From: a virus
Strand: one strand, 5' to 3'
IMG/VR virus record: IMGVR_UViG_3300045988_155830
Coordinates: 1-64,000 of that record
Length of the DNA: 64,000 nucleotides
The notes under the pieces were generated by a model. It did not search any database. It saw only the letters and a list, made by a program, of their open reading frames with translations, and was not told where the DNA came from. Shown here in pieces: positions 16,728-64,000 of the stretch. Both the position numbers and the translations under genes were made by a program. Position 1 is the stretch's first letter, and each line of letters opens with the position of its first letter.

Positions 16728-16732
16728 TTGAT

Positions 16733-20304: not shown

Positions 20305-20322
20305 AGAGTGAAAATTTAATAT

Positions 20323-20810: not shown

Positions 20811-20816
20811 TAATAT

Positions 20817-20906: not shown

Positions 20907-21520
20907 ACATCCTGTTGGCGTAACAGGTTGGTTGAGAACCGACTCTCACGACCAATACCAAAAGTATAAAAGCCTCTTAACAATGCTCACTATTATGAAA
21001 AAGTTGGTTATTAAAATATTGCTGTCGCTGCGAATATAGGTGGGGTAAACATACTTTCATATGCAAATCGCAAAATCCTCATTAGCGAACTCCGTGGAAG
21101 CTGCTCCTATGGCTGATGGCTTCTGACAGCAACTATATAAATGAGAAGAAAGAAACTCTCTGTTTAGGGTGAAATGATATATCTCTAATCGGTGCTGACA
21201 CCTATCAGACATTTATATGGCGTTACGCCCTCTACCGATACGATAACTCGGGGTAACACAATGGTGAGGGAATTATAAATACGAGAGTGCAGGAATAACG
21301 AGTAGTCATTCAAAGGAATTGCAGTAAATGATTGTGCATTTATAACGAACTGCAAGAGTGAATGTATGAACAATGAATGACGGTGACTAAATATCAGTTA
21401 GTAATGGCAATATGAGGCGAGGATGTGGTGCGGCTATGCAAACCAACTCACAGTGTTTCGGCATAGAGTAGTTGAACTGTTGCTAACTGGTATTGAAATC
21501 ACTTTAGAAAGGAGAGAACA
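20907..21520 (+). ncRNA. candidate large structured ncRNA (about 600 nt, ORF-free) directly 3' of tRNA-Ser
   Basis: No + strand ORF; GC content visibly higher than the flanks; numerous local hairpins; this placement (after tRNAs in a phage) is typical of ROOL/GOLLD-class RNAs, but that is not verified. Confidence 0.35.
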
Positions 21521-21522
21521 AA

Positions 21523-21792
21523 ATGTTTTATAATGTAATAATCGGAAGTCCGATTGTAGAACCTAAAACATTGATTGCTCTTGATGATATAGATTGGGAA
21601 ACTAATGAAAAAGAAAAGACATTATTTACCGATACAAGATTTCTTCCGGCAATTATGAAAGAAGCCGGAATAGTGAAATCAATCGGAGAAGTTAGAAAGA
21701 ATAAGCCCGAACTTGTTTTTACTCTTAATGAACTTGATTGTTTATGGATTAAATGGGGCAAGAAGTTTCTCTATATTGTAGTCGGTAATTGA
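21523..21792 (+). CDS. hypothetical protein (89 aa)
   Basis: GGAGAG RBS upstream of the ATG. Confidence 0.45.
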   Translation: MFYNVIIGSPIVEPKTLIALDDIDWETNEKEKTLFTDTRFLPAIMKEAGIVKSIGEVRKNKPELVFTLNELDCLWIKWGKKFLYIVVGN

Positions 21793-22018
21793 TTGGAAAT
21801 CTATTATAAATAAAGATAAATTTGCGGAATTGATAAATGAAATATTTATAAGCGGCGTTGCTTATGGTATGGCTTATCAAACAAAAGTGATGCAGAGAAA
21901 TATCATATTATTGATGAAAAACAGATAAAATTTTATTTAGTGATTTTTAGTTAATGATTTGGCTATTTCTTTTTATCCAAGTGCGATTATTCCATCTGCT
22001 TTGAAAAATAAATGAATT

Positions 22019-22101
22019 GCTGGTGTGGTGGAATGGCAGACACGGCAGACTCAAAATCTGTTGCTATAAGCGTGCGAGTTCAAATCTCGCCACCAGCACC
22101 A
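22019..22101 (+). tRNA. tRNA-Leu (anticodon CAA), type II, CCA encoded
   Basis: Acceptor gctggtg/caccagc; anticodon stem gcaga/tctgt with loop ctcaaaa; T-arm gcgagttcaaatctcgc. Confidence 0.75.
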
Positions 22102-22103
22102 AA

Positions 22104-22197
22104 GGTTCATTGGTCAAGCGGTTAAGACACTGGCGGAGGTATGTAGTGTAAATCAGGCACACTGCCGGAGACATAGGTTCAAATCCTATATGAGCCA
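22104..22197 (+). tRNA. aberrant tRNA-like gene (94 nt) with an approximately 29-nt insertion or 9-nt loop in the anticodon region; no CCA
   Basis: Acceptor ggttcat/atgagcc; D-arm gtcaagcggttaagac; T-arm ataggttcaaatcctat; the region between D- and T-arms is 44 nt with nested stems ctggc/gccgg and agtgt/acact. Confidence 0.4.
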
Positions 22198-22253
22198 TAG
22201 ATAATCCTATTTCGTTGTTAAGTGTGGCTGACACTTTCAAAAACAGCCAATAT

Positions 22254-22329
22254 AGCAGGATAGAGAAGTGGTTATCTCGTCAGCCTCATAAGCTGAAAAT
22301 CGTGGGTTCAAATCCCACTCCTGCAACCA
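22254..22329 (+). tRNA. tRNA-Met (anticodon CAT), CCA encoded
   Basis: D-arm gagaagtggttatctc; anticodon stem tcagc/gctga with loop ctcataa; T-arm gtgggttcaaatcccac; a 1-72 A-A mismatch in the acceptor. Confidence 0.65.
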
Positions 22330-22705: not shown

Positions 22706-23515
22706 ATGAAATATGATGCATTTGATAAAAGAATGAAAAAGTATGAATTTGTGTCGAGACACTATTTGACAACTCGTACTCCTGTTATTATCCGAATTGA
22801 CGGTAAAACGTTTCATACATTCACAAGAGGTTTTCAAAGACCTTTCGATGATGTACTTTCTAAAACTATGCAGGAGACAATGAAATATCTTTGTGAAAAT
22901 ATTCAAGGTTGTGTTCTTGGATATACACAATCAGATGAGATTACTCTTGTCCTTGTTGATTACAAGAATATAGATACTTCTGCTTGGTTTGATTACAATA
23001 TCCAAAAGTGTGCGAGTGTTGCAGCAAGTATGGCAACAATGGCTTTTAATAAATTTTTCAATAACAGAGCCAATAATTATATAAATTCAGTTTTAGAACT
23101 CCAAGATACAGATATTCCATCCGAATTAGAATATATTAAGATACTTAAAAGAGCAATAGATAAAGGTGCAATGTTTGATGCTCGTGTATTCAATATTCCA
23201 AAAGATGAGGCTTGCAATAATTTACTTTGGAGACAGAATGATGCCACAAGGAACTCAATTCAGATGGTTGGCAGAGCATCTTTCTCTCACAAGCAATTAA
23301 ATAAAAAATCCACAAGCAATATTCAGGATATGCTTATGCTTGAAAAAGGCGTAAACTGGAATGATTATCCTACAAAATATAAGAGAGGTAGCTGTTGTAT
23401 TCGTAAGACTGATGAGACAACAGGTAGAAGTAAATGGATTATTGATAATGAAATTCCTATCTTTAAGGGAGATGGTCGAAAGTATGTCAATGATTTAATA
23501 TATGTGGGCGAGTAA
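22706..23515 (+). CDS. Thg1-like protein (tRNA-His guanylyltransferase family 3'-5' polymerase)
   Basis: VIIRIDGKTFHTFT and VLGYTQSDEITLVLV match the Thg1/TLP signatures (RIDGRxFHxF; GQSDEYSF); RBS GAGGATG upstream. Confidence 0.75.
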   Translation: MKYDAFDKRMKKYEFVSRHYLTTRTPVIIRIDGKTFHTFTRGFQRPFDDVLSKTMQETMKYLCENIQGCVLGYTQSDEITLVLVDYKNIDTSAWFDYNIQKCASVAASMATMAFNKFFNNRANNYINSVLELQDTDIPSELEYIKILKRAIDKGAMFDARVFNIPKDEACNNLLWRQNDATRNSIQMVGRASFSHKQLNKKSTSNIQDMLMLEKGVNWNDYPTKYKRGSCCIRKTDETTGRSKWIIDNEIPIFKGDGRKYVNDLIYVGE

Positions 23516-42502: not shown

Positions 42503-43702
42503 ATGAGTAAAGTTAAGGTCAAAGTAGTAATAGGTAGTAATTATGGAGATGAAGGAAAAGGATTGGCAACACATTTTTTCTCTCAATCCGAGAAAAATAA
42601 GTGCTTAAATGTTTTATTTAATGGAGGATGTCAACGAGGTCATACTGTCGAACTTAAAGATGGCACAAGGCATATTTTCCATCATTTTGGAAGTGGCACA
42701 TTTGATAATGCTCATACATACTTTGACCAAAACTTTATGGTTAATCCTGCAATCTTCATTCAAGAATATAATGAGCTTAAAAAATATGGCATCAAACCTA
42801 TATGTATGATTTCTCCTAAATGTAGAGTAAACACTATGTATGATATGTTTATCAATCAAATTGTTGAAATACATAGAGAGAATAAAAGACACGGTTCTTG
42901 TGGTTATGGTATTTGGGAAACACAAAAAAGGTATGATGATGGTGTTTTTGCATTAGATTATAACCAACTATCTCATATGAACGATAAAGATGTTGTAGAT
43001 TATCTACATAATATAGCAAATGTTTATTTACCTAAAAAATTATTTGAATACGGAATAACAGAAATTCCACAAGAGTATCAAGAGTTGATAAAGTCTAAAG
43101 GGTTAATTGAACATTTCGTTAGTGATTTAAGAGAAATGCAATATATAACTTTTATGTGTGATTTCGATAGAATCCGAAATAAGTATAATACCATTATATT
43201 TGAGGGTGCGCAAGGTCTTGAACTTGATGAGAATAATTTAAAAGCATTGCCATACATCACAGCAAGTAATACTACTTCTTATACACCCATTCAAAGAGTT
43301 AATGATTTTGATTGTGATGTTGAAATTTGTTATATTACAAGGTCTTATTTTACCAGACACGGAGCAGGAACATTGCCAACAGAATGTGATAAGTCGGATA
43401 TAAATGAAGATATAACTGACCTTACAAACTGTTATAACGATTACCAGCAAACAATAAGGTATGGAATGTTTGATTATGATGAGTTTATCAATAGAGTGAA
43501 AACTGATATACAAAGAGCAAGAGAAAAAATCAGCGGAACAAAAACTTCTGTTATGATTACTCATTTGAATTATACGGATAATGAAATTGCAGGTAATTGT
43601 AAAATTCAAGATTTGTTAAAACATTTCGATAATATATATTTATCTAATACAAAATTTTCAGAAGATATAAAGAGAACCAACAAAGGAAGTACAATACATT
43701 GA
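42503..43702 (+). CDS. adenylosuccinate synthetase-like enzyme (PurA/PurZ family)
   Basis: N-terminal VVIGSNYGDEGKG P-loop typical of PurA; 399 aa, shorter and more divergent than housekeeping PurA. Confidence 0.65.
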   Translation: MSKVKVKVVIGSNYGDEGKGLATHFFSQSEKNKCLNVLFNGGCQRGHTVELKDGTRHIFHHFGSGTFDNAHTYFDQNFMVNPAIFIQEYNELKKYGIKPICMISPKCRVNTMYDMFINQIVEIHRENKRHGSCGYGIWETQKRYDDGVFALDYNQLSHMNDKDVVDYLHNIANVYLPKKLFEYGITEIPQEYQELIKSKGLIEHFVSDLREMQYITFMCDFDRIRNKYNTIIFEGAQGLELDENNLKALPYITASNTTSYTPIQRVNDFDCDVEICYITRSYFTRHGAGTLPTECDKSDINEDITDLTNCYNDYQQTIRYGMFDYDEFINRVKTDIQRAREKISGTKTSVMITHLNYTDNEIAGNCKIQDLLKHFDNIYLSNTKFSEDIKRTNKGSTIH

Positions 43703-49126: not shown

Positions 49127-50073
49127 CAAGGGAAGAAGTGCTGAATTCTATTCAGTTGAAAAAGAGATTCTGTAAAGATTGTAATATACCGATTGCCGTG
49201 TTTGATAATCCGTATTTTTGTGAAAGACTTATAACACTTGATACAATTTTTAATTGTGTTGAACAGTTTAATCTGTTTTGTGTAGAAATGCAGCAGTTCA
49301 ATAATGAGCAGGATTATTTTGAATACTATAATTTAGTAAAAGATAAAATGATTTCGGATATTAAAGGAAATCATACATATCAATCTTTCAATATAGATTT
49401 AAGTGGTAAATCTGAAACTGCCCTTAATATAGAAAGAGCAAAAGTCGGAAAGAAAAACCTTTATGTTGAAAATAATGACGGAAAGGCATTTATATCTATT
49501 GATATGAAAAAAGCAAACTTTTCATCAATGAACTTCTATTCGAGAGATATTTTCGATTGCGACACCTGGGAAGATTATGTTGGAAAATTTACGAATAGTT
49601 TACATATTCAAAATAGTAAATATATCAGACAGGTTGTATTAGGTGCTTGTAATCCTAAAAGACAAATTCAGTATGAGCATTCATTGATGTTAAAACTCTA
49701 TCTACATATCAAAGACACACTTAATGACAATGGTTTCACGGCTTACAGTATTGGCGAAGATGAAATACTTATAGAAGTAGGTCAGTTCCACCATCCGCTT
49801 AATAAGTTAAAAGAGGTTATTGATTCTTGTCCTTTAGGTATTGGTAATCTTGTAAGAGTTGAAATGTTTGATTTACAGAAAGCAGGAGATTATGGGTGGT
49901 TAAAAGTTATTTATGATGATAACCAGACCGTTAAATTCAAGTGTATTGATTCAGAGATATTTCATCAAATAGTTAAACACTATTACAATATACCAATTAC
50001 AGAAAATGACCTTGTATTTAGACATAATGGCAGACTTGCACGATTTTTAGAGGAGGTCAAAAATCCGTGGTAG
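49123..50073 (+). CDS. hypothetical protein (316 aa)
   Basis: Overlapping start and stop codons. Confidence 0.5.
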   Translation: MTREEVLNSIQLKKRFCKDCNIPIAVFDNPYFCERLITLDTIFNCVEQFNLFCVEMQQFNNEQDYFEYYNLVKDKMISDIKGNHTYQSFNIDLSGKSETALNIERAKVGKKNLYVENNDGKAFISIDMKKANFSSMNFYSRDIFDCDTWEDYVGKFTNSLHIQNSKYIRQVVLGACNPKRQIQYEHSLMLKLYLHIKDTLNDNGFTAYSIGEDEILIEVGQFHHPLNKLKEVIDSCPLGIGNLVRVEMFDLQKAGDYGWLKVIYDDNQTVKFKCIDSEIFHQIVKHYYNIPITENDLVFRHNGRLARFLEEVKNPW

Positions 50074-51392
50074 ATATAAAAATGCCTATGCCGGTTGAAT
50101 TTGCATTAAACAGATTGCATTCAAATGGTTATGAAGCTTATATCGTTGGTGGATGTGTACGTGATAGTATTATAGGAATTCAACCTCACGACTGGGATAT
50201 TTGCACATCTGCTTTGCCAGAGCAAGTCCAAGAAATATTCAAAGACTTAAAAGTAATTCCCACTGGTTTACAGCACGGAACAGTAACCGTTGTTTTTGAA
50301 GATGGCGATTGCAAGCAATGTCTTGAAATCACTACTTACAGAATTGACGGAGAATATAAAGATAACCGACACCCTGAAAATGTTAAGTTTGTATCTGACC
50401 TATCACTTGATTTAATGCGCAGAGATTTTACAATCAATGCTATGGCTTATAATGATAAAGAAGGCATCATTGATATGTTTGGCGGAGTTGAAGATATTGA
50501 AATGGGCTGTTTGAGATGTGTAGGAAATCCAGATGATAGATTTCAAGAAGATGCGCTCCGCATTATGAGAGCTATTCGCTTTGCAATTAGATATGATTTG
50601 CAAATTGATGATGAGATTATTAAATCAATTCAGAAAAACAAGATACTTTTGAAGAATGTATCTGTTGAAAGAATTTGTGCTGAATTGACAAAGATACTTG
50701 AATCAAATATCGGCAATGACGGTTCAAAGAAAAACAGGATTGAACTGATTGGTTATCTTATTGATTTTTTACAGGTAGTTCTTGATTACAAGATTGATTT
50801 TGATGAGCAAGAGGTTTACAACAGATTGGCTTTTGTTGAGCCAAATGTTCCATTAAGACTCGCAATCTTGTTTGATACTACTAATATTATGAATATCCTT
50901 AAAGATTTAAGGTTTTCAAACGATGTTGTATTTGCAGCACACGCTATCCGTGAATATGGTCATAAAATTCTTGACGAGAAAGATAAGCGGAGTAGCAAAT
51001 CAAGCATTGCGGCAGCAGTCAATAATCTGCATATAGGAGATAGAGAAGATAATGTTGAAGATGATAGCTCATTGCGTTACTATGCGAGACGGTCATTAAA
51101 AAACATTCATTCTTGCTCATTTGAATCCATAATATCGTTTGCAAAGGCTTATGTCAATGATGAATATATGTTTGTTGCATTAAACATTCTTCAAAGGCAA
51201 ATGCAATTTTGTAAAGAGAATGACGTATATTGCCTTCAGTATCTTGCCGTAAATGGCAATGATATTATGCAAGCCGGATTTGAGGGTAAGGATATAGGAG
51301 ATATATTAAATAAACTTCTCGATATGGTTATGCGAGAAGATGTCCGAAATAACAGAGAAGAATTGTTGGCTGCCGTATCAAAATTTAGATAA
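50067..51392 (+). CDS. tRNA nucleotidyltransferase (CCA-adding enzyme), class II
   Basis: GGCVRD, DWDI, RRDFTINAMAY and ERIxxE-like motifs. Confidence 0.8.
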   Translation: MVDIKMPMPVEFALNRLHSNGYEAYIVGGCVRDSIIGIQPHDWDICTSALPEQVQEIFKDLKVIPTGLQHGTVTVVFEDGDCKQCLEITTYRIDGEYKDNRHPENVKFVSDLSLDLMRRDFTINAMAYNDKEGIIDMFGGVEDIEMGCLRCVGNPDDRFQEDALRIMRAIRFAIRYDLQIDDEIIKSIQKNKILLKNVSVERICAELTKILESNIGNDGSKKNRIELIGYLIDFLQVVLDYKIDFDEQEVYNRLAFVEPNVPLRLAILFDTTNIMNILKDLRFSNDVVFAAHAIREYGHKILDEKDKRSSKSSIAAAVNNLHIGDREDNVEDDSSLRYYARRSLKNIHSCSFESIISFAKAYVNDEYMFVALNILQRQMQFCKENDVYCLQYLAVNGNDIMQAGFEGKDIGDILNKLLDMVMREDVRNNREELLAAVSKFR

Positions 51393-53260: not shown

Positions 53261-53352
53261 TTAAATAATTCTTTTATTAGTAAAGAATAGAGAATGGTCT
53301 ATATTGATTAGCATTTTAATACTAACAAAAAATAGGGAGTTAAAACATCAGA

Positions 53353-54313
53353 ATGGGCGATAAAAAATCTACTTCATTTGAAAATAAATATACAGTTGAA
53401 GATTTACGAATAATGCAATCGTGGTCATTGCAAAGAAAAATACAGGTCACACAAACACGAATAATCGAATGGTATCAGAAAAACAATGGAAAAGTTTATG
53501 TTTCTTTTAGTGGCGGAAAAGATTCTACCGTACTTCTTGATTTAGCAAGAAGAATTTATCCTGATATTCCTGCCGTTTTTATTGATACTGGGCTTGAATA
53601 TCCAGAATTAAGAGAGTTTGTTAAATCAATATCAAATGTAGTTTGGTTAAAGCCAGATATGAATTTTCGTAAAGTAATTGAAACATATGGCTATCCAATC
53701 ATTAGCAAGAATGTTAGCAGGGCAATACACGATGTCAAAAAATTAGGAAATAATTGTTGGTCTGCAAGAGCTTTTGATGGTAGAGAAACTGGTTTATACA
53801 ATTATACCAAATATAAATACTTACTTGATTCTCCGTTCAAAATTAGCAATCAGTGTTGTGAAGTTATGAAAAAGAAACCATTAAAAAAAATATGAAAAAC
53901 AGTCTGGAAACAAACCAATTATCGGAACAATGGCTTGTGAGAGTCAAGCAAGAAAAATCGCTTGGTTACATAATGGTTGCAACTCTTTTAGTGGTAAAAA
54001 TCAGAAATCACAACCTATGAGTTTTTGGACTGAACAGGATGTATTAGAATACATATCGCTCACTGGAATATCATATACGCAAGTTTATGGTGAAATTATT
54101 AAAGATAAAGATGGTAAATATCACACTACTAAATGCAATAGAACGGGATGTATATTTTGCGGTTTTGGATGCCATCTTGAAAAAGAACCAAATAGATTTC
54201 AAAGATTAAAAGAGACACATCCAAAGCTATGGGAATATTGTATGAGAGATTGGAATAGCGGAGGACTTGGAATGAAAAGTGTTCTTGAATATATAGGAGT
54301 AAAAATTGAGTAA
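53353..54313 (+). pseudogene. PAPS-reductase-family (ATP-pyrophosphatase fold) protein split by a 1-nt frameshift in an A8 run (53883-53890)
   Basis: N-terminal part has SFSGGKDS (PP-loop); C-terminal part has CGFGCHLE; removing one A fuses the two frames. Confidence 0.55.
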
Positions 54314-54872
54314 AACTATTTTAATTGATATAGATGATACCATTGAAAACCTTTGTGAAACCTGGGTTTCCTGGCTTAATAAACAATATGGTACTTCTGT
54401 TAAATATGATGAGATAACGGAATGGGATATAAGTAAATTCTTCCCATTATTAACCAAAGAACAGGTTTATGAACCATTACATAATCCATCATTATGGAGT
54501 TATGTTGAACCAAAGCCTGGAGCAGTTGAATATGTAAAGAAACTAATTGATGAAGGTTACAATGTTTATCTTTGCACAACAACTGATTATAGAAATGTTA
54601 AACCAAAGTTTGAGAGTGTTATTCAGAAACATTTTCCTTATATAAAGTGGAGTCAGGTTATTATTGCAAGTCAAAAACAAATGATAAACGCAGATGTTCT
54701 TATTGATGATGGAATACATAACCTTGAAAACGGTAATTATATCAAAATTCTTGTATCTGCTTCTCATAACAAAAACTATGATGCTGCAAGCAATGGTATG
54801 CACAGAGCCGACACTTGGGAAGAAATATATTCACTTATTCATTCATTGATAGGAGAACCATATGAGAGTTGA
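54306..54872 (+). CDS. HAD-superfamily 5'(3')-deoxyribonucleotidase-like hydrolase
   Basis: N-terminal ILIDIDDTI (DxDxT). Confidence 0.55.
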   Translation: MSKTILIDIDDTIENLCETWVSWLNKQYGTSVKYDEITEWDISKFFPLLTKEQVYEPLHNPSLWSYVEPKPGAVEYVKKLIDEGYNVYLCTTTDYRNVKPKFESVIQKHFPYIKWSQVIIASQKQMINADVLIDDGIHNLENGNYIKILVSASHNKNYDAASNGMHRADTWEEIYSLIHSLIGEPYES

Positions 54873-55428
54873 TATTTTTAATACATCAAATCAGTATAAC
54901 TTAATTCTTGCTGACCCACCCTGGAAACAGGCTAAAGGCGGCAAGAAGAAAGTTAGACCGGTCAGCAGTGGAACTGCACTTGACTACCCTGTATGTTCTC
55001 TTGATGAAATCAAAAGACATTTGGCACAAGCTACAAGTTTATGCAAGGGGGATAGCGTTCTTTTCTTATGGACTATTGATAAGTATTTATTTGAGGCACA
55101 ACAGATTGCAGAATCATTAGGTTATAAGTTACACGCAAGAATGATATGGAATAAGGTCACAGGTATTCCAGCAGCATTTACAGTTAGATATGGTCACGAA
55201 TATTTATTGTATATGTATAAAGGCAAACTTATCCCTGTGGCTACCGAAGAAAGAGGTAAGATACATACCGTTTTTACGGAAAAAGTTCAGAAACATAGTA
55301 AAAAGCCGGAAATTTCTTATGAAATTATCAATCGCCTTTATCCTAATTTAAAAAAGTTAGAGATGTATGCAAGAGAAGAAAGAGATAATTTCGATGTCTG
55401 GGGTAATGAAGTACCCGTACAAAACTAA
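54862..55428 (+). CDS. MT-A70-family adenine methyltransferase
   Basis: LILADPPWKQ (DPPW). Confidence 0.65.
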   Translation: MRVDIFNTSNQYNLILADPPWKQAKGGKKKVRPVSSGTALDYPVCSLDEIKRHLAQATSLCKGDSVLFLWTIDKYLFEAQQIAESLGYKLHARMIWNKVTGIPAAFTVRYGHEYLLYMYKGKLIPVATEERGKIHTVFTEKVQKHSKKPEISYEIINRLYPNLKKLEMYAREERDNFDVWGNEVPVQN

Positions 55429-55448
55429 TCTAAACGGAGGAACTTGTA

Positions 55449-55655
55449 ATGTTTAAATGTAAAAATTGTGGAACTGAAATGGAGAGAGTTTATTCTTTTG
55501 AAAATGAGAATGAAAGTTATCAGCAGATGAAGTGTCCTAACTGTGGCGGTGCTACAAAAAAGAGACCTATCGTGTATGACGATAACGGCAATCTCGTAAC
55601 CAATTTCAAGAAGAACAATAAAAAGAAAAAGCAGAGAAAGGCTAAAGAAGAATGA
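55449..55655 (+). CDS. hypothetical zinc-ribbon protein
   Basis: CKNCG...CPNCGG. Confidence 0.45.
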   Translation: MFKCKNCGTEMERVYSFENENESYQQMKCPNCGGATKKRPIVYDDNGNLVTNFKKNNKKKKQRKAKEE

Positions 55656-58600
55656 TTATCAATGATAAGAGAGCATTAGCCTATATCGTAACCATTGATG
55701 AAATTAGACCTATTCCGAATTACGATAGGGTTGAACACGCTCGTACAAATGGATGGTGGTGTGTAACTCGTCTTAATGAATTAAAAGTTGGAGACAAAGC
55801 GGTTTATTTTGAAGTCGATAGCAAAGTGCCGGCAGATGATGAGAGATTTAGTTTCCTTGAGGCTAAACACTACAAGATTAAAACTCAAAAAATGTGTGGA
55901 GTTTTTTCACAAGGTTTGCTAATGCCAGTTACATTATTTCCTGAATTAGCGGATATGGAAGTCGGAACAGATGTTACTGATATTCTTAAAGTTACATATT
56001 CTGTCATTGAAGATAATACAAGAAAATCCAAAAATGGAGACCCTGATGCAAAATATAAGTCTATGGCACAGCGACATCAAAAGATTTTTAAGAAACCTAT
56101 TGTGCGAAAGATTATGAAACACAAGCTCGGCAGAAAGATTATGTTCCTTTTCTTTGGAAAAAAGAAAGATAAACCATTATCATTTCCGACACATTTCCCA
56201 TTTGTTCATAAGACAGATGAAGAAAGGTGTTTAATTGGCGATACAAAAGTCCAAACAAACAATGGTGTTTTAAAAATTGCCGACATAGTAAATAAAGAGT
56301 TGCCTGTTGAGGTTTTATCTTATAATGAGAAAACAAAAACAGTTGAATATAAACCGATTATTTCTTATCAAAAATTTGCGAAGAAAGAAGATGAAGATTT
56401 AATCGAAATAAAATATCCTTACAGATTTGGAAATCAAAAAACAAATACTATTCGTTGCACCCCAGACCATAAATTTTATAATGGTTCAACTTATGTACGA
56501 GCTGATGAAATTCATCAAGGTGATAAAATTTTTATTCACCATCATTGTTATGATGACTATGTTATTCAAGTTGTTTTTGGAATGCTACTTGGAGATTCTT
56601 CAATTTATTATGATAAGAGAAGTGGTAGTAATAATATCCGCATCCAAACCTCACAAGGCGAAAAACAATTAGATTACTTAAAAATGAAGCAATCGTTGTT
56701 TGGAGAACAATTCTTTAAGATTTCCAAATGTAAAAGCGGATATTGTGACAATGTGGTTTATAAAGGGTGTCTATCGGCTGATTACAATATTTCTAAAGCT
56801 GTATTAGAAAATTGTTTTATTAACAATAAGAAAACAATTACACCTACAATGTTAAAATATATTACGCCACTTTCTCTCGCAATTTGGTATATGGATGATG
56901 GCAACCTTAAACATAAATATGATAGTTGTAGTCCATCAATTATTATTTCTACTTGTGGTTTTTCAAAAAATGAAAATGAATTGCTAATTGATATGTTGAG
57001 AAATAATTTTGGAATTGAGTGCAACTTGCGTAGAGAGAAAAATAAATATTGGAGCATTTATATTACAACTGAAGGAACAAAGAAGTTCCTAAAACTCATT
57101 ACTCAATATATCCCACCGTGTATGAGGTATAAAACATTACAAGAATATGAGAATGATTATTTTTCTATCCAAGATTTAAGATATAAAAAGCAGGAACGAT
57201 TGATGCCCATACCAGTAATATCAATTAAAAAATATAAGGGTATTAGACGATATAAAACTGTTTTTGATATTGAAGTTAAAGATAATCATAATTTCTTTGC
57301 GAACAATATATTAACTCATAATTGTGAGAATATGCCGTGGGTTCTTGGATATGAAAGACCGTTAATCGTGACTGAAAAACTTGATGGTTGTCTTGATAGA
57401 GATGTTAGCGTTGTTACAGATGCTGGTTCGTTTAAGATTTCAGAAATTGTAAACAAAAAACTTCCTGTGAATGTTCTCACTTATAATTCTAATTTGAATA
57501 TTTGCGAATACAAACCGATTGTAGATTATCACAAATGGGAAAGAGTATCGGATATGTATGACATAGTAGTATCTCAACAAGGTTATAAGTGTGAAAACAA
57601 ACCGAAACATATTCGCTGTACAAGTGAACACAGCTTTTATGTTGGTAACAATCAATACATAAAAGCTAAAGACTTAAAAAATACTGATATAATTTATCAT
57701 AGATATGAAATTATTGATACATTAGTAAAAGAAATCTTATTGGGAATTTTGCTTGGAGATGCCTCATTATCTTCTAAATACGGAGTAATAAATGGTGGCG
57801 TTGATTTTAGTCATTCTATTAAACAGAAAGATTATTTTAATGAGATAAAAAGATTGTTGGGTCAAAATATTTCAATAGATACAACAAAATCGGGATATAA
57901 TTCTGAAATGTTAAGAGGTCATTTTTATACTAATTCAGAATTTAAGGAGTTGTCAAATAAAATATGTGTAAGAAATCACAAAAAATATGTAACACAAGAA
58001 TGGGCAAATGAATTAACTCCCATATCTCTTGCATTTTGGTATATGGACGATGGAACTATCTCAAATGCTGATTCAAAGTTGTCAAGACCTACAATTAGTA
58101 TTGCTACAAATGGTTTTAGTTATGAGGAATGCGAAAACTTAAAAAGAGCATTATCAACAAAGTTTAATATTGAATCAGACATAAAAATGGGAGAATCATA
58201 TAAAGGGAATACACTCTATATGAATACAATGAATACGGCTAAATTTGCTTCCTTGATTGCTCCATATATTTGCGATGGTATGAAGTACAAGTTGCCAAAA
58301 TCAATGAGAAATATTAAGTATTGTCTCGGAGATTATATAGCGAGCAATGGTAGCTCAATTACTCCCACGAAAATTATTTCTGTAAGAAAAATTGACAATT
58401 ATAACCGCAAATATGTTTTTGATTTAACAGTCAAAGATAACCATAACTATTTTGCAAACGGTATTTTAACACACAATACCTCATCTACATATATTCTTGA
58501 AAGAAAAGGCAAGAAAAAATTCGAGTTTTATGTTCTATCAAGAAATGTTCGTCAAAAGACACCTGACCAAAAGTGCTACCACGATAAGAATATTTACTGG

Positions 58601-59011
58601 GATATGGCTATTAAAAACAATATTGAGCAACGCCTAAAAGAATATCTTATTGCAAATCCAGACTTGAAATATGTCTGCATACAAGGGGAGTCTGTTGGTA
58701 GTGTTCAAGGAAATCCACTTAAATTAAACGAAGATGAACTCTATGTATTTAACTTCATTCGTTCCGATGTGGGTAGATTATCATCTATTGACGGAAAAGA
58801 AATTATTGAGAGTTGGGGTATGAAATTTGTCCCAATATTGGAAACAGAATATTATGTACCAACTGATATGGAAACATTCAAAGAGTATGCAACTGCAAAA
58901 TCTGTTGTAAATCCGAATGTATTGCGTGAGGGCATTGTGCTTCGTGACCCGACCAATGATTTTAGCTTTAAGAATGTTTCCCGTGAGTATTTATTAAAAC
59001 ACGGAGGTTAA
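55652..59011 (+). CDS. RNA/DNA-ligase-family nucleotidyltransferase (KxDG) interrupted by two LAGLIDADG inteins; the extein is about 391 aa
   Basis: Extein motifs TEKLDG|TSST (motif I), IQGESVG (motif IV) and FSFK (motif V); two insertions with the intein hallmarks Cys1 and ..THN followed by C or T. Confidence 0.65.
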   Translation: MIINDKRALAYIVTIDEIRPIPNYDRVEHARTNGWWCVTRLNELKVGDKAVYFEVDSKVPADDERFSFLEAKHYKIKTQKMCGVFSQGLLMPVTLFPELADMEVGTDVTDILKVTYSVIEDNTRKSKNGDPDAKYKSMAQRHQKIFKKPIVRKIMKHKLGRKIMFLFFGKKKDKPLSFPTHFPFVHKTDEERCLIGDTKVQTNNGVLKIADIVNKELPVEVLSYNEKTKTVEYKPIISYQKFAKKEDEDLIEIKYPYRFGNQKTNTIRCTPDHKFYNGSTYVRADEIHQGDKIFIHHHCYDDYVIQVVFGMLLGDSSIYYDKRSGSNNIRIQTSQGEKQLDYLKMKQSLFGEQFFKISKCKSGYCDNVVYKGCLSADYNISKAVLENCFINNKKTITPTMLKYITPLSLAIWYMDDGNLKHKYDSCSPSIIISTCGFSKNENELLIDMLRNNFGIECNLRREKNKYWSIYITTEGTKKFLKLITQYIPPCMRYKTLQEYENDYFSIQDLRYKKQERLMPIPVISIKKYKGIRRYKTVFDIEVKDNHNFFANNILTHNCENMPWVLGYERPLIVTEKLDGCLDRDVSVVTDAGSFKISEIVNKKLPVNVLTYNSNLNICEYKPIVDYHKWERVSDMYDIVVSQQGYKCENKPKHIRCTSEHSFYVGNNQYIKAKDLKNTDIIYHRYEIIDTLVKEILLGILLGDASLSSKYGVINGGVDFSHSIKQKDYFNEIKRLLGQNISIDTTKSGYNSEMLRGHFYTNSEFKELSNKICVRNHKKYVTQEWANELTPISLAFWYMDDGTISNADSKLSRPTISIATNGFSYEECENLKRALSTKFNIESDIKMGESYKGNTLYMNTMNTAKFASLIAPYICDGMKYKLPKSMRNIKYCLGDYIASNGSSITPTKIISVRKIDNYNRKYVFDLTVKDNHNYFANGILTHNTSSTYILERKGKKKFEFYVLSRNVRQKTPDQKCYHDKNIYWDMAIKNNIEQRLKEYLIANPDLKYVCIQGESVGSVQGNPLKLNEDELYVFNFIRSDVGRLSSIDGKEIIESWGMKFVPILETEYYVPTDMETFKEYATAKSVVNPNVLREGIVLRDPTNDFSFKNVSREYLLKHGG
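56228..57322 (+). mobile_element. intein 1 (365 aa, LAGLIDADG homing-endonuclease type)
   Basis: Begins CLIGDT; internal LLGDSSIYY and AIWYMDDGN; ends NILTHN with C+1 (CENMP). Confidence 0.75.
57389..58477 (+). mobile_element. intein 2 (363 aa, LAGLIDADG type), inserted directly after the KxDG glycine
   Basis: Begins CLDRDV; internal LLGDASL and AFWYMDDGT; ends GILTHN with T+1. Confidence 0.75.
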
Positions 59012-59015
59012 GCAA

Positions 59016-59345
59016 ATGGCAATAACTAATGAGGAAGAAATTATGCTTGAAAAGTTATTCAGAACTGAATTACAGAAACATTTTTTGCGTGGTATCAAAG
59101 TCGGTATTCAAACTTGCAGTAAGGTTTGTCTTGAAAAACTTAATGACAATTCCAAGCCGTTAATGAAACGAATTGAAAATATCAAGAAATATTGTGCTGT
59201 TGCAACACAACTAGATTTTCTTACTAAAGGTATTGATGATACACCTTCAAAAGAAGATGTACCTGAAATTAAAGAAGTTGTGGTAGAAAAATCGGCACAG
59301 CAAAATTCTGATGAAACAAATGTTTCGCAATCCCCCAATAATTGA
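59016..59345 (+). CDS. hypothetical protein
   Basis: 109-aa ORF. Confidence 0.45.
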   Translation: MAITNEEEIMLEKLFRTELQKHFLRGIKVGIQTCSKVCLEKLNDNSKPLMKRIENIKKYCAVATQLDFLTKGIDDTPSKEDVPEIKEVVVEKSAQQNSDETNVSQSPNN

Positions 59346-59415
59346 GGGCTTGAATAACATTATTTGAAAATAAAACTACAATTTTATTTATAAAGATAAG
59401 AAAAGGGCAAATATT

Positions 59416-60420
59416 ATGAAATCAATTGTCAACTATAAAAGAATATGTGATAAACCATTCCTGATTATGATGTGTGGCCTGCCCGGAAGTGGCAAAAGTA
59501 CATTTGCTGAAAATTCCATCACGGTAACTTCGGGTGTAAAGCAGTATAAACCTGTAATCCATTCTTCTGATGGTTTACGCAAAGAGATTTATGGAAATGA
59601 ATCAACACAAGGAGATGCTAATAAGGTATTTGGAGAATTACATAAACGTATTAAGAACGACCTTATTGCCGGCAAAGATGTTATTTATGATGCGACTTGC
59701 ATTAAAAAGAAACAGCGTATTCAGTTTCTCAAAGAATTAAAAAATATATCTTGCACTCCTGTCTGTATTTGTATGGCAACAGAATATTCACTTTGTCTAT
59801 ATAACAATGAGCATAGAGAAAGAAAAGTACCTGTTGATGTTATTAAGCGTATGCAAATGAACTGGCAGCCTCCTCATTATAATGAAGGCTTTGAACAGAT
59901 TACATATATATTTTCTTATCTTGATAAAAATTACAATATAGTCAATGCAAGTCAAAAAGATAAATATAACCTCGGAAAATTCTTTGAAATAGCTAATTCA
60001 TTTGACCAAGAAAACCACCATCATAAACTTACACTTGGCAAACATTGTGAAAATGCAGGTCAAGGAATACAAGCAACAAACCCAGATAATTTTTGGCTTT
60101 TGATTGCTACTTTATTACACGATAATGGCAAGTTATATACAAAGACAAAAACTAATGCAAGAGGTATTGAAGATGGTGATTGCCACTATTACCAACATCA
60201 TTGTGTTGGAGCATATAATGCAATGTTCTATCTTCATAGTTTTGAAGATATTGAAGAAAAGAACATTGCATATGTTACGAATCTGATTTATTACCATATG
60301 CACCCGTATAATGAGTGGAAGCATTCTGAAAGAGTGCATAATAAAGATAAGTTACTTCTTGGCAAAAAATTATATAACGATATTCAACTGTTGCACGAAG
60401 CAGATTTGCTTGCACATTGA
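59416..60420 (+). CDS. polynucleotide-kinase-like P-loop kinase fused to an HD-domain phosphohydrolase
   Basis: N-terminal MMCGLPGSGKST (Walker A, T4 Pnk-like); C-terminal LIATLLHDNGK (HD motif). Confidence 0.6.
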   Translation: MKSIVNYKRICDKPFLIMMCGLPGSGKSTFAENSITVTSGVKQYKPVIHSSDGLRKEIYGNESTQGDANKVFGELHKRIKNDLIAGKDVIYDATCIKKKQRIQFLKELKNISCTPVCICMATEYSLCLYNNEHRERKVPVDVIKRMQMNWQPPHYNEGFEQITYIFSYLDKNYNIVNASQKDKYNLGKFFEIANSFDQENHHHKLTLGKHCENAGQGIQATNPDNFWLLIATLLHDNGKLYTKTKTNARGIEDGDCHYYQHHCVGAYNAMFYLHSFEDIEEKNIAYVTNLIYYHMHPYNEWKHSERVHNKDKLLLGKKLYNDIQLLHEADLLAH

Positions 60421-60434
60421 TGGAGGTTTTAACA

Positions 60435-60755
60435 ATGAAACTAATTGATAGAGAGCGTGGTTCTGGCAAAACTACGAAGTTGATTTATACAAGTGAAATG
60501 ACAGGTTATCCGATAGTGACACAAAATAGTCAAAGCGTAGAACATATAATAAGGCAAGCACAAGAGCTTGGTGCTAAAATTCCCAAGCCTATGACTGTCA
60601 AAGAAGTGTGTACTGTTCGAGGTATTAGGTTTGATAAGATACTTATAGATGAAGGTTTTTCGATTATCGAGAACGCCTTGAAGGCTTATTTTAACGGAGT
60701 AGGAGTCGCAACTGTTACATTCACTTCAAATGATTACAATAACACCTTCGGGTGA
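60435..60755 (+). CDS. small P-loop protein
   Basis: RGSGKTT; ATG 60435 with RBS GGAGG. Confidence 0.4.
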   Translation: MKLIDRERGSGKTTKLIYTSEMTGYPIVTQNSQSVEHIIRQAQELGAKIPKPMTVKEVCTVRGIRFDKILIDEGFSIIENALKAYFNGVGVATVTFTSNDYNNTFG

Positions 60756-60868
60756 TAATATATATACCTTACTTTGAAAAGTGGTGGTTCATTATGATTG
60801 TAAGAAACAAGTAAGAGCAAAACGAAAATAAATGATTAAAATTATTAAGATAGGAGAAAAATACAGAA

Positions 60869-61498
60869 ATGGCAGAAAGTATTTTTGAGACCTTAAACAA
60901 GGTTGATGTATCTAATAAGACCAAAGAAAAAGGTGGTCTTACATATCTTTCTTGGTCATCTGCTTGGGCAGAAGTCAAGAAAAAATATCCAGAAGCAACA
61001 TATGAAATTATTTCACAGGTCGTTGATGAAGGTGGAAACACGAGATTCTGGCACGATGACGGCAAGACCGGATGGGTTGAAGTTAAAGTAACCATTGGAG
61101 ATATTTCTCATACAGAGGTTCTTGCAATTATGGACTTTAAAAATAAGTCAATCCCTGCTGAAAACATTACATCTGTTGATGCAAACAAGTCCTTAAAGCG
61201 TTGTCTTGTTAAAGCTCTTGCTATGCACGGTCTTGGATTATATATCTACGAGGGAGAAGATTTGCCGGAGGAAGCCTCAAAGACAATCGAACTCAAAGAT
61301 AAGATTAAGGAACTTGTTAATAAAAAGGTTAAGTTATCAGATAAGGCAAAGGAAAAAGTTGCCGAACTTTGCAAAGCCGCAGAGAAACAGGCTAATCCTA
61401 CTCTTGATGATGATTTGATTACGGGAAATTACAACAATATCGAAGATGCCGAAGTGCTTGCTAATCTCGAAAGGCAGCTTTTGGCAGTAAGAAAGTAA
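60869..61498 (+). CDS. Rad52-family single-strand annealing protein (Sak-like)
   Basis: GGLTYLSWSSAWAEV and C-terminal MHGLGLYIYEGEDLP resemble the lactococcal phage Sak pattern (..LEYLSWAQVW.. / ..GLGLYLY). Confidence 0.6.
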   Translation: MAESIFETLNKVDVSNKTKEKGGLTYLSWSSAWAEVKKKYPEATYEIISQVVDEGGNTRFWHDDGKTGWVEVKVTIGDISHTEVLAIMDFKNKSIPAENITSVDANKSLKRCLVKALAMHGLGLYIYEGEDLPEEASKTIELKDKIKELVNKKVKLSDKAKEKVAELCKAAEKQANPTLDDDLITGNYNNIEDAEVLANLERQLLAVRK

Positions 61499-61513
61499 AG
61501 TGAGGTAAATATT

Positions 61514-61948
61514 ATGGGATTTAGACAGGCAGACAACGAAGGTCGTGGTGGTTTCGCACGCATTTGGTCTATCGAGAACAAGGGTAACTATTCAGTTGCA
61601 AAAATCAGTACAAGTAAAAAACGCAAAGATGGAGGTGGTTATGAGACCGATTTCCAGGACGGATTTGTTCGTTTAATTGGTTCTGCTCACGAAAAAGGTA
61701 AGACTTTAACCGTGACAGAAAAAGGTGTAGCAATTCAAATTACATCTTGCGAGGTTACTACCCCTTACAATGCAGAAACCAAAAAAGGTTATACAAACTA
61801 TGCAATTTTTGCTTTCAATATTCCCGAAGGCAATGATAATTCATCGACAACAAAGGGCGGCAAGAAGTCATCGGCAAAGACTTCAAAGGCAAAGACTAAA
61901 AAGGCTGCCGAAGTCGCAGATGAGCCAGAAGATGAGCTTCCGTTCTAA
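61514..61948 (+). CDS. ssb: single-stranded DNA-binding protein
   Basis: OB-fold-like N-terminus, Gly/Ser-rich linker, and acidic C-terminal tail ending DEPEDELPF. Confidence 0.7.
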   Translation: MGFRQADNEGRGGFARIWSIENKGNYSVAKISTSKKRKDGGGYETDFQDGFVRLIGSAHEKGKTLTVTEKGVAIQITSCEVTTPYNAETKKGYTNYAIFAFNIPEGNDNSSTTKGGKKSSAKTSKAKTKKAAEVADEPEDELPF

Positions 61949-62565
61949 TGGCTGAAACAAATCCTAATGTTGAGAGGTTTGAACAGTTATTAAAAAGCAC
62001 TAATAGAGAAGGTATAGATAGTCTGATTGACTTTATTAGGAAGTCAGACTTCTATACTGCTCCTGCATCAACAAGATTTCATTCTTGTCACGAAGGTGGG
62101 TTGTTAGAGCATACATTACTTGTTTATGACCGTCTCAACACAAAATTTGAAGATAAATTGTGGAGTGAGAAAGTTGATGTCAAAATTGAAAACATCATTA
62201 TTGCCGCACTACTTCACGATTTATGTAAGGTATATTACTACGGAACAGAGTTAAAAAATAAGAAGATTTACAGTGACCACGGAAAGAAATCAGATAGCAA
62301 TGGCAGGTATGATTGGGAGACAATTCCGGCTTATACAGTGGATGATAAAATCCCTTACGGTCACGGAGAAAAGTCAGCAATGATGGTAGAAGAATTTATC
62401 CGTTTAGAACCAGTTGAAAGATACGCTATTCGTTGGCATATGGGCTTTACAGAGCCTAAAGAGAATTGGAATACTCTTGGATGTGCAATTCGCAAATATC
62501 CTCTTATTTTGGCTCTACATACATCGGATTTAGAAGCAACATACTTGTTAGAAAAGGAAGAATAA
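61948..62565 (+). CDS. HD-domain phosphohydrolase
   Basis: H..H...D pattern; IAALLHDLCK. Confidence 0.6.
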   Translation: MAETNPNVERFEQLLKSTNREGIDSLIDFIRKSDFYTAPASTRFHSCHEGGLLEHTLLVYDRLNTKFEDKLWSEKVDVKIENIIIAALLHDLCKVYYYGTELKNKKIYSDHGKKSDSNGRYDWETIPAYTVDDKIPYGHGEKSAMMVEEFIRLEPVERYAIRWHMGFTEPKENWNTLGCAIRKYPLILALHTSDLEATYLLEKEE

Positions 62566-62568
62566 TAT

Positions 62569-63114
62569 ATGAGCAAAAAAACTGACATTAAGGTTTGCAG
62601 ATATGTTGACTGCCCATACGGAAAAGAAATTGATATTACCAAAGATGATTATAGAGTAGTCGGTAAAACAATGTATTATCACACTGATTGCCTCAAGAAG
62701 AAAAAAAAAGGTGAATGGAAAGATGAAAAAACAAAAGCCGATTTACAATATATCAAAAATGGTTGGGTTACTCATATTAGTAAAACCGTTATTTATAGTC
62801 AGTTGTTTCAATGCTTAAATGAACTCATTGCTCGTGGTATTTCTTCGGATTATCTTGTATTTGTGTTTGACTATATAGTTAGTCACAAATTGAATTTAAG
62901 GCATCCAAAAGGTTTCAAATATTTTGTTGATAAAGATGAAATAAAGGTTGCTTATAAGAAACAGCAGTCGCAGAAAATCAGTTCAATAAAACCAAGCAAT
63001 TTTTCCGGTACTACTGATAGTTCGGATGTTCCGAAGTTTGCTCTTAATAGAAAACCGAATGGATTTGGAAGTATTCTAAATCACAAGGAGTCAATAGATG
63101 AGAAAAAAGTATAA
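62569..63114 (+). CDS. hypothetical protein
   Basis: 181-aa ORF. Confidence 0.45.
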   Translation: MSKKTDIKVCRYVDCPYGKEIDITKDDYRVVGKTMYYHTDCLKKKKKGEWKDEKTKADLQYIKNGWVTHISKTVIYSQLFQCLNELIARGISSDYLVFVFDYIVSHKLNLRHPKGFKYFVDKDEIKVAYKKQQSQKISSIKPSNFSGTTDSSDVPKFALNRKPNGFGSILNHKESIDEKKV

Positions 63115-63283
63115 CACATATGATTTAGATTCCTTAATGAGTGTTAAAAATCAACGAATCAATTTAGGTAGATTCGATACTCTTGAAGATGCCATTGCTG
63201 CAAAACATAAGGCTCAAAATGAATATTATAAAAAATTTTCATATTTGAATAGCATTAAGCAAAGTGAAAGGATAGGTGAATGA
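63098..63283 (+). CDS. hypothetical small protein
   Basis: 61-aa ORF. Confidence 0.35.
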   Translation: MRKKYNTYDLDSLMSVKNQRINLGRFDTLEDAIAAKHKAQNEYYKKFSYLNSIKQSERIGE

Positions 63284-64000
63284 TATAAATACAAAAATTG
63301 AAGAATTATCAGATATACAATCTGAAAGTGGCATTATAGGAACACTCATTTATCATCCTGAATTTGTTCTTCATACTGATTATCTTAAACCAAATTATTT
63401 TTATGGCGTAGAGAATGGTTGTTGTTACTGGGCTATTCAAGAACTTTATAGAGAAGGCATTACAAATATTGATGCCTATAATATCTCAAATAAATTGCAA
63501 AGCCATCCAGGAGTAAGCAAAACAATCGAAAAATATAATATGCCAGCGGTACAAGATTTTATTGAACTCTATAAAGAAATCGCAAGACACTCTTTAGAGG
63601 AATATAAAATGCTTGCCGACAATATTGTGACCCTCGCCTTTAAGCGTGACTTGGTTAAAACTTTAGACAAAGTATCAAGAAGTTGTTTTAAGAATGATAT
63701 TGACCTTGATACATTAAGCAACAATGTATATGACGAACTTGATAACCTCACGCAAAAATATATATCCAGCACAGAAATACATACTCTCGGTACAGAAATA
63801 GATAGTATTTGGGAAGAAATATGCAATCGCCGTTCAGACAATGGTGTTTATGGAATACCATCAAAATTCAACATATTTAATGATTATTTCACTTACGAAA
63901 CTGGCGAATTAGTGGTAGTTCAAGCAAAATATAAAAGAGGTAAATCTGTTCTGCTTATGAACGAAGTTGTTCATAAACTTAGGAACGGTGTTCCAACTTT
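63276..64000 (+). CDS. replicative DNA helicase (DnaB-like), 5' portion; the gene continues beyond the window
   Basis: N-terminal domain (SESGIIGTLIYHPEF..ENGCCYWAIQELY) and the start of the RecA-like core (GIPSKFNIFNDYF...VVVQAKYKRGKSVLL); GTG start assumed. Confidence 0.6.
   Translation, partial: MNDINTKIEELSDIQSESGIIGTLIYHPEFVLHTDYLKPNYFYGVENGCCYWAIQELYREGITNIDAYNISNKLQSHPGVSKTIEKYNMPAVQDFIELYKEIARHSLEEYKMLADNIVTLAFKRDLVKTLDKVSRSCFKNDIDLDTLSNNVYDELDNLTQKYISSTEIHTLGTEIDSIWEEICNRRSDNGVYGIPSKFNIFNDYFTYETGELVVVQAKYKRGKSVLLMNEVVHKLRNGVPT

Follow-up and report, generated by a model that had tools for sequence, protein, structure and literature searches.

Two inteins interrupt the predicted ATP site of an Rnl5-type RNA ligase gene in an uncultured phage

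The window analysed here comprises the first 64,000 nucleotides of the viral record IMGVR_UViG_3300045988_155830 (IMG/VR), and one of its open reading frames (ORFs) very probably encodes the precursor of an Rnl5-type RNA ligase of an uncultured phage, with an ATP site that is split by two self-splicing, homing inteins. The two insertions, referred to below as intein a and intein b, account for 728 of the 1119 precursor residues (65%), and their removal in silico leaves a 391-residue protein. An initial annotation, made without database searches, had described two LAGLIDADG inteins with canonical junctions in this ORF, 22 residues apart and filling about two-thirds of it, the second directly after motif I of the ligase. 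Translation and paired matches to the Pfam and NCBIfam intein models place both elements exactly where that annotation had put them and in frame, and the position of the second is borne out by its junctions (KLDG/C...HN/TSSTY; slashes mark splice junctions or insertion points throughout) and by alignment with the RNA ligase of Naegleria gruberi (NgrRnl).

The precursor, its inteins and the host enzyme

The borders of the inteins can be read from the translation as KTDEER/CLIGD...NILTHN/CENMPW for intein a and TEKLDG/CLDRD...GILTHN/TSSTYI for intein b, both in frame (Table 1). When the whole precursor was searched against Pfam, LAGLIDADG_2 and Intein_splicing were each matched twice (4.7e-65 and 6.3e-29, respectively), and the NCBIfam models intein_Nterm and intein_Cterm were also found twice each. 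The intein DNA has a G+C content of 28-30%, at which about 9% of random codons are stops; both intein frames are free of stops (log10 P of about -15 each), while the other two frames contain 19-56 of them, and for the whole 3.36 kb that is open in this AT-rich DNA log10 P is about -43. Identical copies of the 1119-residue protein (P0121) are present on at least five independently assembled contigs, and 1119-residue variants from its 90%-identity cluster occur on 11 further contigs, for at least 16 in all. Because the same protein has been assembled independently on several contigs, the ORF is not an assembly artefact. No further intein copies were found in the window, where tblastn searches with both inteins matched only themselves and each other, and no group I or group II intron RNA was detected there with Rfam at the gathering threshold, the only matches being the 10 tRNAs.

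Table 1. Coordinates of the ligase precursor, its parts and other features discussed in the text (window positions)
Feature	Position	Strand	Details
Precursor ORF	55652..59011	+	1119 codons plus stop; intein-interrupted Rnl5-type RNA ligase
N-extein	55652..56227	+	Residues 1-192; OB-fold domain, linker, start of nucleotidyltransferase domain; C-terminal end KTDEER
Three synonymous markers	56221, 56225, 56227 (within 56221..56227)	+	GAA GAA AGG versus GAG GAA CGT; at most 7 nt upstream of site a
Intein a	56228..57322	+	365 residues (precursor residues 193-557); Pfam Intein_splicing 4.4e-15, LAGLIDADG_2 1.1e-35
Intein a block B (TxxH)	56456..56470	+	C77-T-P-D-H81
Intein a homing-endonuclease domain	56567..57088	+	Residues 114-287; PF03161
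Intein a LAGLIDADG motif 1	56579-56596	+	GMLLGD123
Intein a LAGLIDADG motif 2	56876-56902	+	LAIWYMDDG225
Middle extein	57323..57388	+	22 residues, CENMPWVLGYERPLIVTEKLDG; motif I KLDG at 57377-57388
Intein b	57389..58477	+	363 residues (precursor residues 580-942); Pfam Intein_splicing 7.2e-17, LAGLIDADG_2 7.2e-31
Intein b block B	57617..57631	+	C77-T-S-E-H81
Intein b homing-endonuclease domain	57728..58246	+	Residues 114-286; PF03161
Intein b LAGLIDADG motif 1	57743-57760	+	GILLGD124
Intein b LAGLIDADG motif 2	58028-58054	+	LAFWYMDDG222
C-extein	58478..59008	+	177 residues from TSSTY; motifs III (QGES), IV (REGIVLR) and V (FSFKNVS); PF09414
15-substitution tract 3' of intein b	58480..58927 (about 450 nt)	+	In the two-intein allele and in no a-only or empty allele examined
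L001 block 1	53328-56230		99.2% nucleotide identity
L001 block 2	57322-57388		100% nucleotide identity; includes the middle extein
L001 block 3	58477-64000		97.2% nucleotide identity
Pnkp-like polynucleotide kinase with HD-like domain	59416..60420	+	Directly downstream of the ligase; AAA_33, KTI12; phrog_505 polynucleotide kinase
Sak single-strand annealing protein	60869-61498		Window ORF
CCA-adding enzyme	50067-51389	+	Upstream of the ligase
Thg1-like tRNA-His guanylyltransferase (3'-5' polymerase) homologue	22706-23512	+	Upstream of the ligase
10 tRNA genes	14423-22329		Gly, Gln, His, Lys-UUU, Arg, Leu (two), Ser, Pro, Met

Both inteins carry the residues of class-1 elements, namely Cys1, the block B motif (TPDH in intein a and TSEH in intein b), the block F Asp (within VFDIEV and VFDLTV, respectively), a terminal His-Asn and a +1 nucleophile, which is Cys for intein a and Thr for intein b. 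For comparison, the 120 best relatives with inteins supplied 126 intein sequences, of which 116 were distinct. Blocks A, B, F and G, which the initial annotation had proposed to verify by alignment, are present in both inteins and conserved over these 116 sequences: C1, H81, D123, G225, D347 and N365 are found in 100% of them and C77, D224 and H364 in 99%, with G122 and D223 also in the range of 99-100%. The best solved sequence match of intein a, used as the sole query, was I-SceI (3.8e-17). An AlphaFold2 model of the precursor had a mean predicted local distance difference test (pLDDT) score of 83, with the inteins mostly at 85-95 and the lowest confidence at three splice junctions. The top matches of this model in a Foldseek search of the PDB were I-WcaI and I-SceI, with template modelling (TM) scores of 0.71-0.74 relative to the target, a root-mean-square deviation (rmsd) of about 3 Å and 26-27% identity, matches that do not resolve which of the two inteins is aligned. 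PI-PfuI, the PhoVMA intein and PI-SceI were matched with E values of 2e-11 to 2e-9, at low whole-chain TM scores (0.28-0.35) and an rmsd of 17-19 Å; NgrRnl fell within the same E value and TM ranges, and T4 Rnl2 was matched as well. Local matches to mini-inteins (Mtu RecA, NpuDnaE and NrdJ-1) had TM scores of 0.55-0.60 relative to the target and an rmsd of 2.0-4.6 Å. By their sequences and modelled folds, both inserts are class-1 inteins with an I-SceI-like double-LAGLIDADG endonuclease, and both protein splicing and DNA cleavage are predicted for them.

The initial annotation had placed the host protein in the ligase family, which holds, and sequence comparison allows it to be assigned further to the Rnl5-type (NgrRnl/DraRnl-like) ATP-dependent RNA ligases rather than to the DNA ligases, as a divergent member that is not a certified equivalog. 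In the spliced protein, Pfam identified a PHA02142 OB fold (PF21189, residues 9-93) and a PF09414 domain (residues 205-379), and the closest solved relative is NgrRnl (5COT, E value 5e-33), with both domains aligned. If the residue roles established for NgrRnl (PMC7261155) carry over, T188 would contact the ribose 3'-OH (Thr145 in NgrRnl), R192 would make a bidentate contact with the ATP gamma-phosphate (Arg149), and D213 would bind the catalytic metal (Asp172), while K211, the counterpart of the adenylylated Lys170, is the predicted AMP-accepting lysine and G214 (Gly173) closes motif I. In the C-extein, the glutamates of QGES and REG and the Lys of FSFKNVS align with Glu227, Glu312 and Lys326 of NgrRnl, respectively. 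Intein b is inserted between G214 and T215, directly after K211-L-D-G, and intein a directly after R192, so that it too lies at an active-site residue. With insertions at these two points, the adenylylation pocket of the unspliced precursor is in three pieces, and the unspliced precursor is presumed to be inactive.

Allele states, intein lineages and mobility

The initial annotation had also suggested looking for ligase genes that lack the inteins. In a homologue search of 5.8 billion proteins with the 391-residue spliced protein, 45 listed representatives were 97-99% identical to it, and every one of them was 391 residues long. These homologues align without gaps except for exactly the two inserts and read ...KTDEER-CENMPW...EKLDG-TSSTY... 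across the sites. A syntenic intein-free contig (L001) aligns with the window in three blocks that break exactly at the intein borders (Table 1), and the window therefore corresponds to an intein-free genome with two precise insertions. Among close relatives, compared at 92.5-99% nucleotide identity in the ligase gene, four states of occupancy were found: an empty allele of 391 residues (for example L001), an a-only allele of 756 residues that lacks intein b (L003-L006), the a + b allele of 1119 residues in the window, and a b-only allele of 544 residues with an intein of 153 residues (P0050, at 1043-2677 of contig L007). In the last of these, intein b has lost its entire endonuclease domain through an in-frame deletion of 630 nt (210 codons) that left the junctions intact, and this mini-intein represents the degeneration stage of the homing cycle in a close relative. 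Empty representatives outnumber two-intein representatives among the close relatives by 45 to 2. Near-identical a-only alleles are common, and one of them is found in RefSeq as WP_295249077.1, named "RNA ligase family protein [Ruminococcus sp.]", while the JGI label for this allele is "intein/homing endonuclease". The only near-identical b-only allele is the mini-intein form, and the full-length b-only alleles listed have inteins that are at most 72% identical to intein b.

The +1 residue at site a differs between close and distant relatives. Of 119 close empty alleles, 114 have Cys there; among the distant intein-free cluster representatives, Ile (46) and Val (23) predominate and Cys occurs in 14. 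Judging from this pattern, the +1 Cys (codon 57323-57325) may be a footprint of past occupancy, with the close empty alleles descending from occupied ones.

Inteins a and b share about 36% identity (BLASTP gives 37%, with an E value of 1e-66, and the alignment of 126 inteins 35.8%). Most of the extracted inteins, 103 of the 126, occupy site a (KTDExR/C), another 22 occupy site b (KxDG/T or C), and one occupies a third position directly after the catalytic lysine (TEK/C-DG), which we call site c. Upon clustering, the site-a inteins separate cleanly from those of sites b and c, and members of one lineage share 30-100% identity, compared with 24-38% for pairs drawn from the a and b lineages. We considered a recent duplication of one intein and rejected it, as the two are only about 36% identical and each groups with its own site-specific lineage. 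On sequence grounds, inteins a and b are thus distant paralogues that belong to two old site-specific lineages. An ectopic jump by way of similar target sites was likewise rejected, since the 20 nt on either side of the empty sites match at about 11 of 40 positions by eye, which is chance level. Other alleles with two inteins (P0142-P0144 and P0179) are 41-52% identical to that of the window. A deeper search with one representative per 50%-identity cluster yielded 122 near-full-length matches among the best 150, and 22 of the 122 contain inteins: 14 at site a, four at site b, one at both and three at site c. Mini-inteins account for five of these 22. Inteins are therefore common and long-standing in this clade of ligases.

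Site c lies three residues upstream of site b, and its inteins, found in P0196, P0268, P0281 and P0368, have the form TEK/C...HN/CDGTS, in which the Cys+1 takes the place of the Leu or Ile in KxDG. The site-c inteins group with the site-b lineage at 36-49% identity, and this grouping suggests a shift of 9 nt in where the lineage inserts in motif I.

The sequences that flank the inteins vary with occupancy. Three synonymous markers just upstream of site a are present in all five intein-a alleles examined and are missing from all eight of the close empty ones. Two N-extein haplotypes are represented among the alleles with intein a, both of them also known in an empty form, and intein a differs at only 3 of 1095 positions between the two. 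On the 3' side of intein b, a tract of about 450 nt carries 15 substitutions that set the two-intein allele apart from all a-only and empty alleles examined (Table 1), and this tract may have been co-converted with the intein from a donor outside the sample. The mini-intein contig L007 was tried as this donor and is unsupported, with 6 of the 15 markers in common. Between the window and L007, the DNA of intein b shows 98.0% identity, compared with 93.5% for the exteins (Fisher p = 1e-4). In the family as a whole, the identities of inteins and of their exteins are correlated (r of about 0.8), and intein identity exceeds extein identity by at least 15 points in 69 site-a pairs and 15 site-b pairs, the top listed of which have inteins that are 95-100% identical and exteins that are merely 70-84% identical. 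One pair, P0133-P0135 (intein a 99% and N-extein 74% identical), was not relied on as proof of transfer, because the P0084 backbone differs mainly in its first 90 or so residues and recombination in the OB domain is an alternative. Overall, the occupancy states, the flank markers and the excess of intein over extein similarity in these population data point to active homing. The candidate empty target sites are ACAGATGAGGAACGT/TGTGAGAATATGCCG and GAAAAACTTGATGGT/ACTTCATCTACATAT; in L001 the empty sites read ...GATGAGGAACGT/TGTGAGAATATG... at site a and ...AAACTTGATGGT/ACTTCATCTACA... at site b, and GAA GAA AGG and ACC are marker variants of the flank sequence.

A proposed life cycle and its alternatives

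In the standard class-1 pathway, splicing of each intein would start with an N-S acyl shift at Cys1, after which the +1 residue, a Cys in the case of intein a and a Thr in that of intein b, would take over the N-extein, the terminal Asn would cyclise, and a rearrangement would give a peptide bond. The two reactions would restore exactly the sequence of the intein-free alleles across both sites, and both would be needed to form the ATP site. In homing, the endonuclease would cut an empty site in a co-infecting relative or in a lysogen or resident relative, and recombinational repair, with the occupied allele as its template, would transfer the intein and a little of the adjoining flank into the cut site. 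The order of invasion may have been a first and then b, which fits because a-only alleles are common and the near-identical b-only state is a single mini-intein form.

Several points weigh against this reading or parts of it. Splicing, the activity and targets of the endonucleases, the order of invasion and the role of the ligase in tRNA repair are predictions drawn from sequence comparison, and RNA over DNA as the substrate of the ligase is likewise a predicted preference. The spliced protein scores 97.5 bits against the NCBIfam equivalog TIGR02306, below the cut-off of 151.15, and the Rnl5 assignment therefore rests on the domain architecture and the match to NgrRnl. The Thr of TxxH is present in both inteins, but is not among the columns conserved at 85% or more in the relatives. 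The linked flank markers could stem from shared ancestry and recombination rather than from co-conversion during homing, and the alleles examined did not yield a donor for the tract of 450 nt downstream of intein b.

One alternative is that one or both inteins are dead for splicing and that the two-intein allele is a ligase pseudogene left behind by double invasion. Splicing is a prediction here, the predominance of intein-free alleles among close relatives would fit such a history, and the neighbouring PAPS-reductase-like gene is frameshifted, so that this copy of the genome does have lesions. Against this, neither intein has lost C1, TxxH, the block F Asp, the terminal His-Asn or its +1 nucleophile (Cys or Thr), all 3.36 kb have remained open, and the same protein is found on at least 16 contigs. 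Moreover, the other two-intein alleles, at 41-52% identity, keep their frames and junctions; as these alleles are independent, their integrity indicates long-term selection for an intact precursor, and we regard a pseudogene as very unlikely.

We also give little credence to the idea that the inteins have been co-opted as a switch, in which conditional splicing would hold the ligase off until a certain stage of infection or a stress, possibly with a redox trigger that acts through Cys1 and Cys+1 of intein a. An active-site location is the general rule for selfish inteins. Most of the close relatives lack either intein and have an identical mature sequence, so that the inteins are dispensable for the phage, and the pattern of presence and absence, the mini-intein and the conservation of the endonuclease residues are all as expected of elements that are purely selfish. 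What speaks for a switch is that both inteins lie in the ATP pocket, which would make splicing an obligatory step of activation, that the first residue of intein a and its +1 residue are both Cys, and that regulatory roles for inteins at nucleotide-binding sites are discussed in the literature (bioRxiv 10.1101/2025.01.02.630785). Finally, it is hardly conceivable that the inserts belong natively to a long isoform of the ligase as accessory domains or that the ORF is an assembly chimera, a reading with nothing in its favour beyond a caveat in the initial annotation and at odds with the homologues that lack exactly these segments, the Pfam and NCBIfam intein models and the independent assemblies.

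A ligase precursor with two selfish, homing inteins involves no new mechanism and belongs to a familiar type of selfish element. It is a tidy natural example of intein biology, with exact borders and with empty, single, double and mini-intein alleles in closely related phages, and around the ATP site of a single enzyme it has two insertion sites (three when the relatives are included) clustered in a stretch of 25 residues. The Rnl5-type RNA ligases of gut Clostridia phages are an addition to the hosts of inteins. In practical terms, the locus offers two compact Cys1 inteins with different +1 residues and two I-SceI-like endonucleases with candidate target sites.

Genome neighbourhood and comparison with known systems

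The phage is uncultured and probably temperate. The genes of the window all lie on the + strand in a setting typical of phages and include an integrase, an NAD-dependent DNA ligase and several methyltransferases, as well as the Sak protein listed in Table 1, and genes for DnaB and DnaG are found further downstream in the syntenic contig L001. Megablast searches of positions 55000-60000 and 30001-55000 against GenBank phages gave no match, and the best that tblastn reached among GenBank phages was RNA ligases of about 30% identity. The host is probably a Ruminococcus-like member of the gut Clostridia, because the a-only allele in RefSeq is named Ruminococcus sp. and relatives occur in metagenome-assembled genomes of Lachnospira, Ruminococcus and Clostridia.

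Directly downstream of the ligase lies the gene for a Pnkp-like kinase, whose product matches the Clostridium thermocellum Pnkp kinase (4GP7, 2e-8), the bacter_Pnkp model (2e-13) and the HD region of a CCA enzyme (2.5e-6). From these matches, it is likely to be an RNA end-healing enzyme and the functional partner of the ligase. With the Thg1-like homologue, the CCA-adding enzyme, the Pnkp-like kinase/HD protein and the ligase, the tRNA-repair toolkit of the window is unusually complete. For cluster J mycobacteriophages, a kinase/phosphoesterase and ligase pair together with phage tRNAs has been proposed to repair RNA against host attack (PMC3706429), and by analogy the same RNA-repair (tRNA-repair) role may apply to this phage. 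Within the tRNA cluster, a TnpB-like ORF (15207-16550; OrfB_IS605 and a Cas12f1-like TNB domain) lies between tRNA-Gln and tRNA-His.

The window also contains several features unrelated to the inteins. The PAPS-reductase-like gene (53353-54313) has one extra A near 53883 that divides it into ORFs of 180 and 127 residues; an intact ORF of 319 residues is present in L001 and L048, and the copy in L013 is split too. The interruption may have arisen as a sequencing error in a homopolymer, may mark a gene that recently became a pseudogene, or may be a frameshift site. The N6_N4 DNA methyltransferase gene of L001 (2864-3679) is absent at window 53285-53328, one of several small cassette differences between genomes that are otherwise 97-99% identical. 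A reverse transcriptase (RVT_1) fused to a SLOG/YAcAr domain is encoded at 10764-12173, with no group II intron RNA nearby (Rfam), and may be a reverse transcriptase of the defence or counter-defence type rather than an intron maturase. An adenylosuccinate-synthetase homologue (42503-43699) keeps the PurA-like GDEGKG motif, has Escherichia coli PurA as its best solved match (1e-17) and belongs to phrog_1211, "2-aminooxy adenylosuccinate synthetase", which we take to be the PurZ (2-aminoadenine pathway) family. Genes for a SAM synthetase and at least four DNA methyltransferases are found near it.

There are well-known cases both of inteins at nucleotide-binding motifs and of several inteins in one protein, and some of the closest parallels are found in other RNA ligases. 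The RNA ligase of cluster J mycobacteriophages such as Dallas (gp153, MN062701.1), whose annotation reads "RNA ligase" and makes no mention of an intein, shares the architecture of the host enzyme, with a PF09414 domain and a weak, sub-threshold match to the PHA02142 OB fold (20.3 bits versus a cut-off of 27 bits). Its intein resembles intein b in its position directly after the Gly of motif I (ITQKLHG/C...VHN/SSIR), in its class-1 junction and in its PF03161-type LAGLIDADG endonuclease. In contrast to the window, however, the Dallas ligase has a single intein, with site a empty and Ser rather than Thr at +1, and this intein is only about 24% identical to intein b, which makes it another lineage or a very deep relative; the similarity between the Dallas and window exteins was not significant in BLASTP. 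The "intein-containing RNA ligase" of Pseudaeromonas phage KLEP7 (OM654377.1) has a LAGLIDADG intein that is 29% identical to intein a, but it lies at another site (ISGEWAG/C...HN/SNIQ) and in another PF09414 ligase that lacks an OB domain. A LAGLIDADG intein is also known in the RtcB of Pyrococcus horikoshii, an RNA ligase of an unrelated, GTP-dependent family. The domain entry IPR021122 is presumably the PF09414-type domain. In one line, a 2025 survey of actinophages names an RNA ligase "IPR021122" among new intein hosts; apart from that line, we found no account in the searchable literature of inteins in Rnl5-type ligases, of site a, of the two-intein arrangement or of the shift between sites b and c.

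The host enzyme shares with NgrRnl and the Deinococcus radiodurans ligase (DraRnl) an N-terminal OB domain and a C-terminal nucleotidyltransferase domain, and it keeps the motif I Lys, the motif III and IV Glu, the motif V Lys and the equivalent of Arg149 of NgrRnl. It differs from the intein-free NgrRnl in an interdomain linker that is about 40 residues longer, and its +1 position at site a is Cys where NgrRnl has Val. The PF03161 domain of both inteins is that of I-SceI and I-WcaI, LAGLIDADG endonucleases of mitochondrial group I introns, but in the window it is embedded in a HINT splicing domain rather than encoded by an intron.

A parallel to the arrangement as a whole is found in MCM-a and MCM-d of Haloferax mediterranei, in which two endonuclease-bearing inteins occupy nearby sites in one gene and single-intein alleles are common. 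Turgeman-Grott et al. (2023, PMC10643990) conclude that double inteins in that system mostly invade alleles with a single intein, and they propose the same sequential order of invasion as suggested here. The ligase locus might be a phage counterpart of it, in which neighbouring inteins hinder or help each other's homing and in which double splicing, or even cross-splicing between halves of the two related inteins that leaves out the 22-residue peptide with the catalytic lysine, gates or modulates tRNA repair in the course of infection; we regard this as a long shot. The systems differ in their hosts, an archaeal replicative helicase in Haloferax and a phage RNA ligase here, and in that homing was demonstrated experimentally in Haloferax, whereas here it is predicted from sequence. 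The two inteins of the window are also recognisable paralogues (E value 1e-66) that lie 66 bp apart, and with its empty, single and double alleles this phage population is well suited to asking whether adjacent inteins hinder each other's homing.

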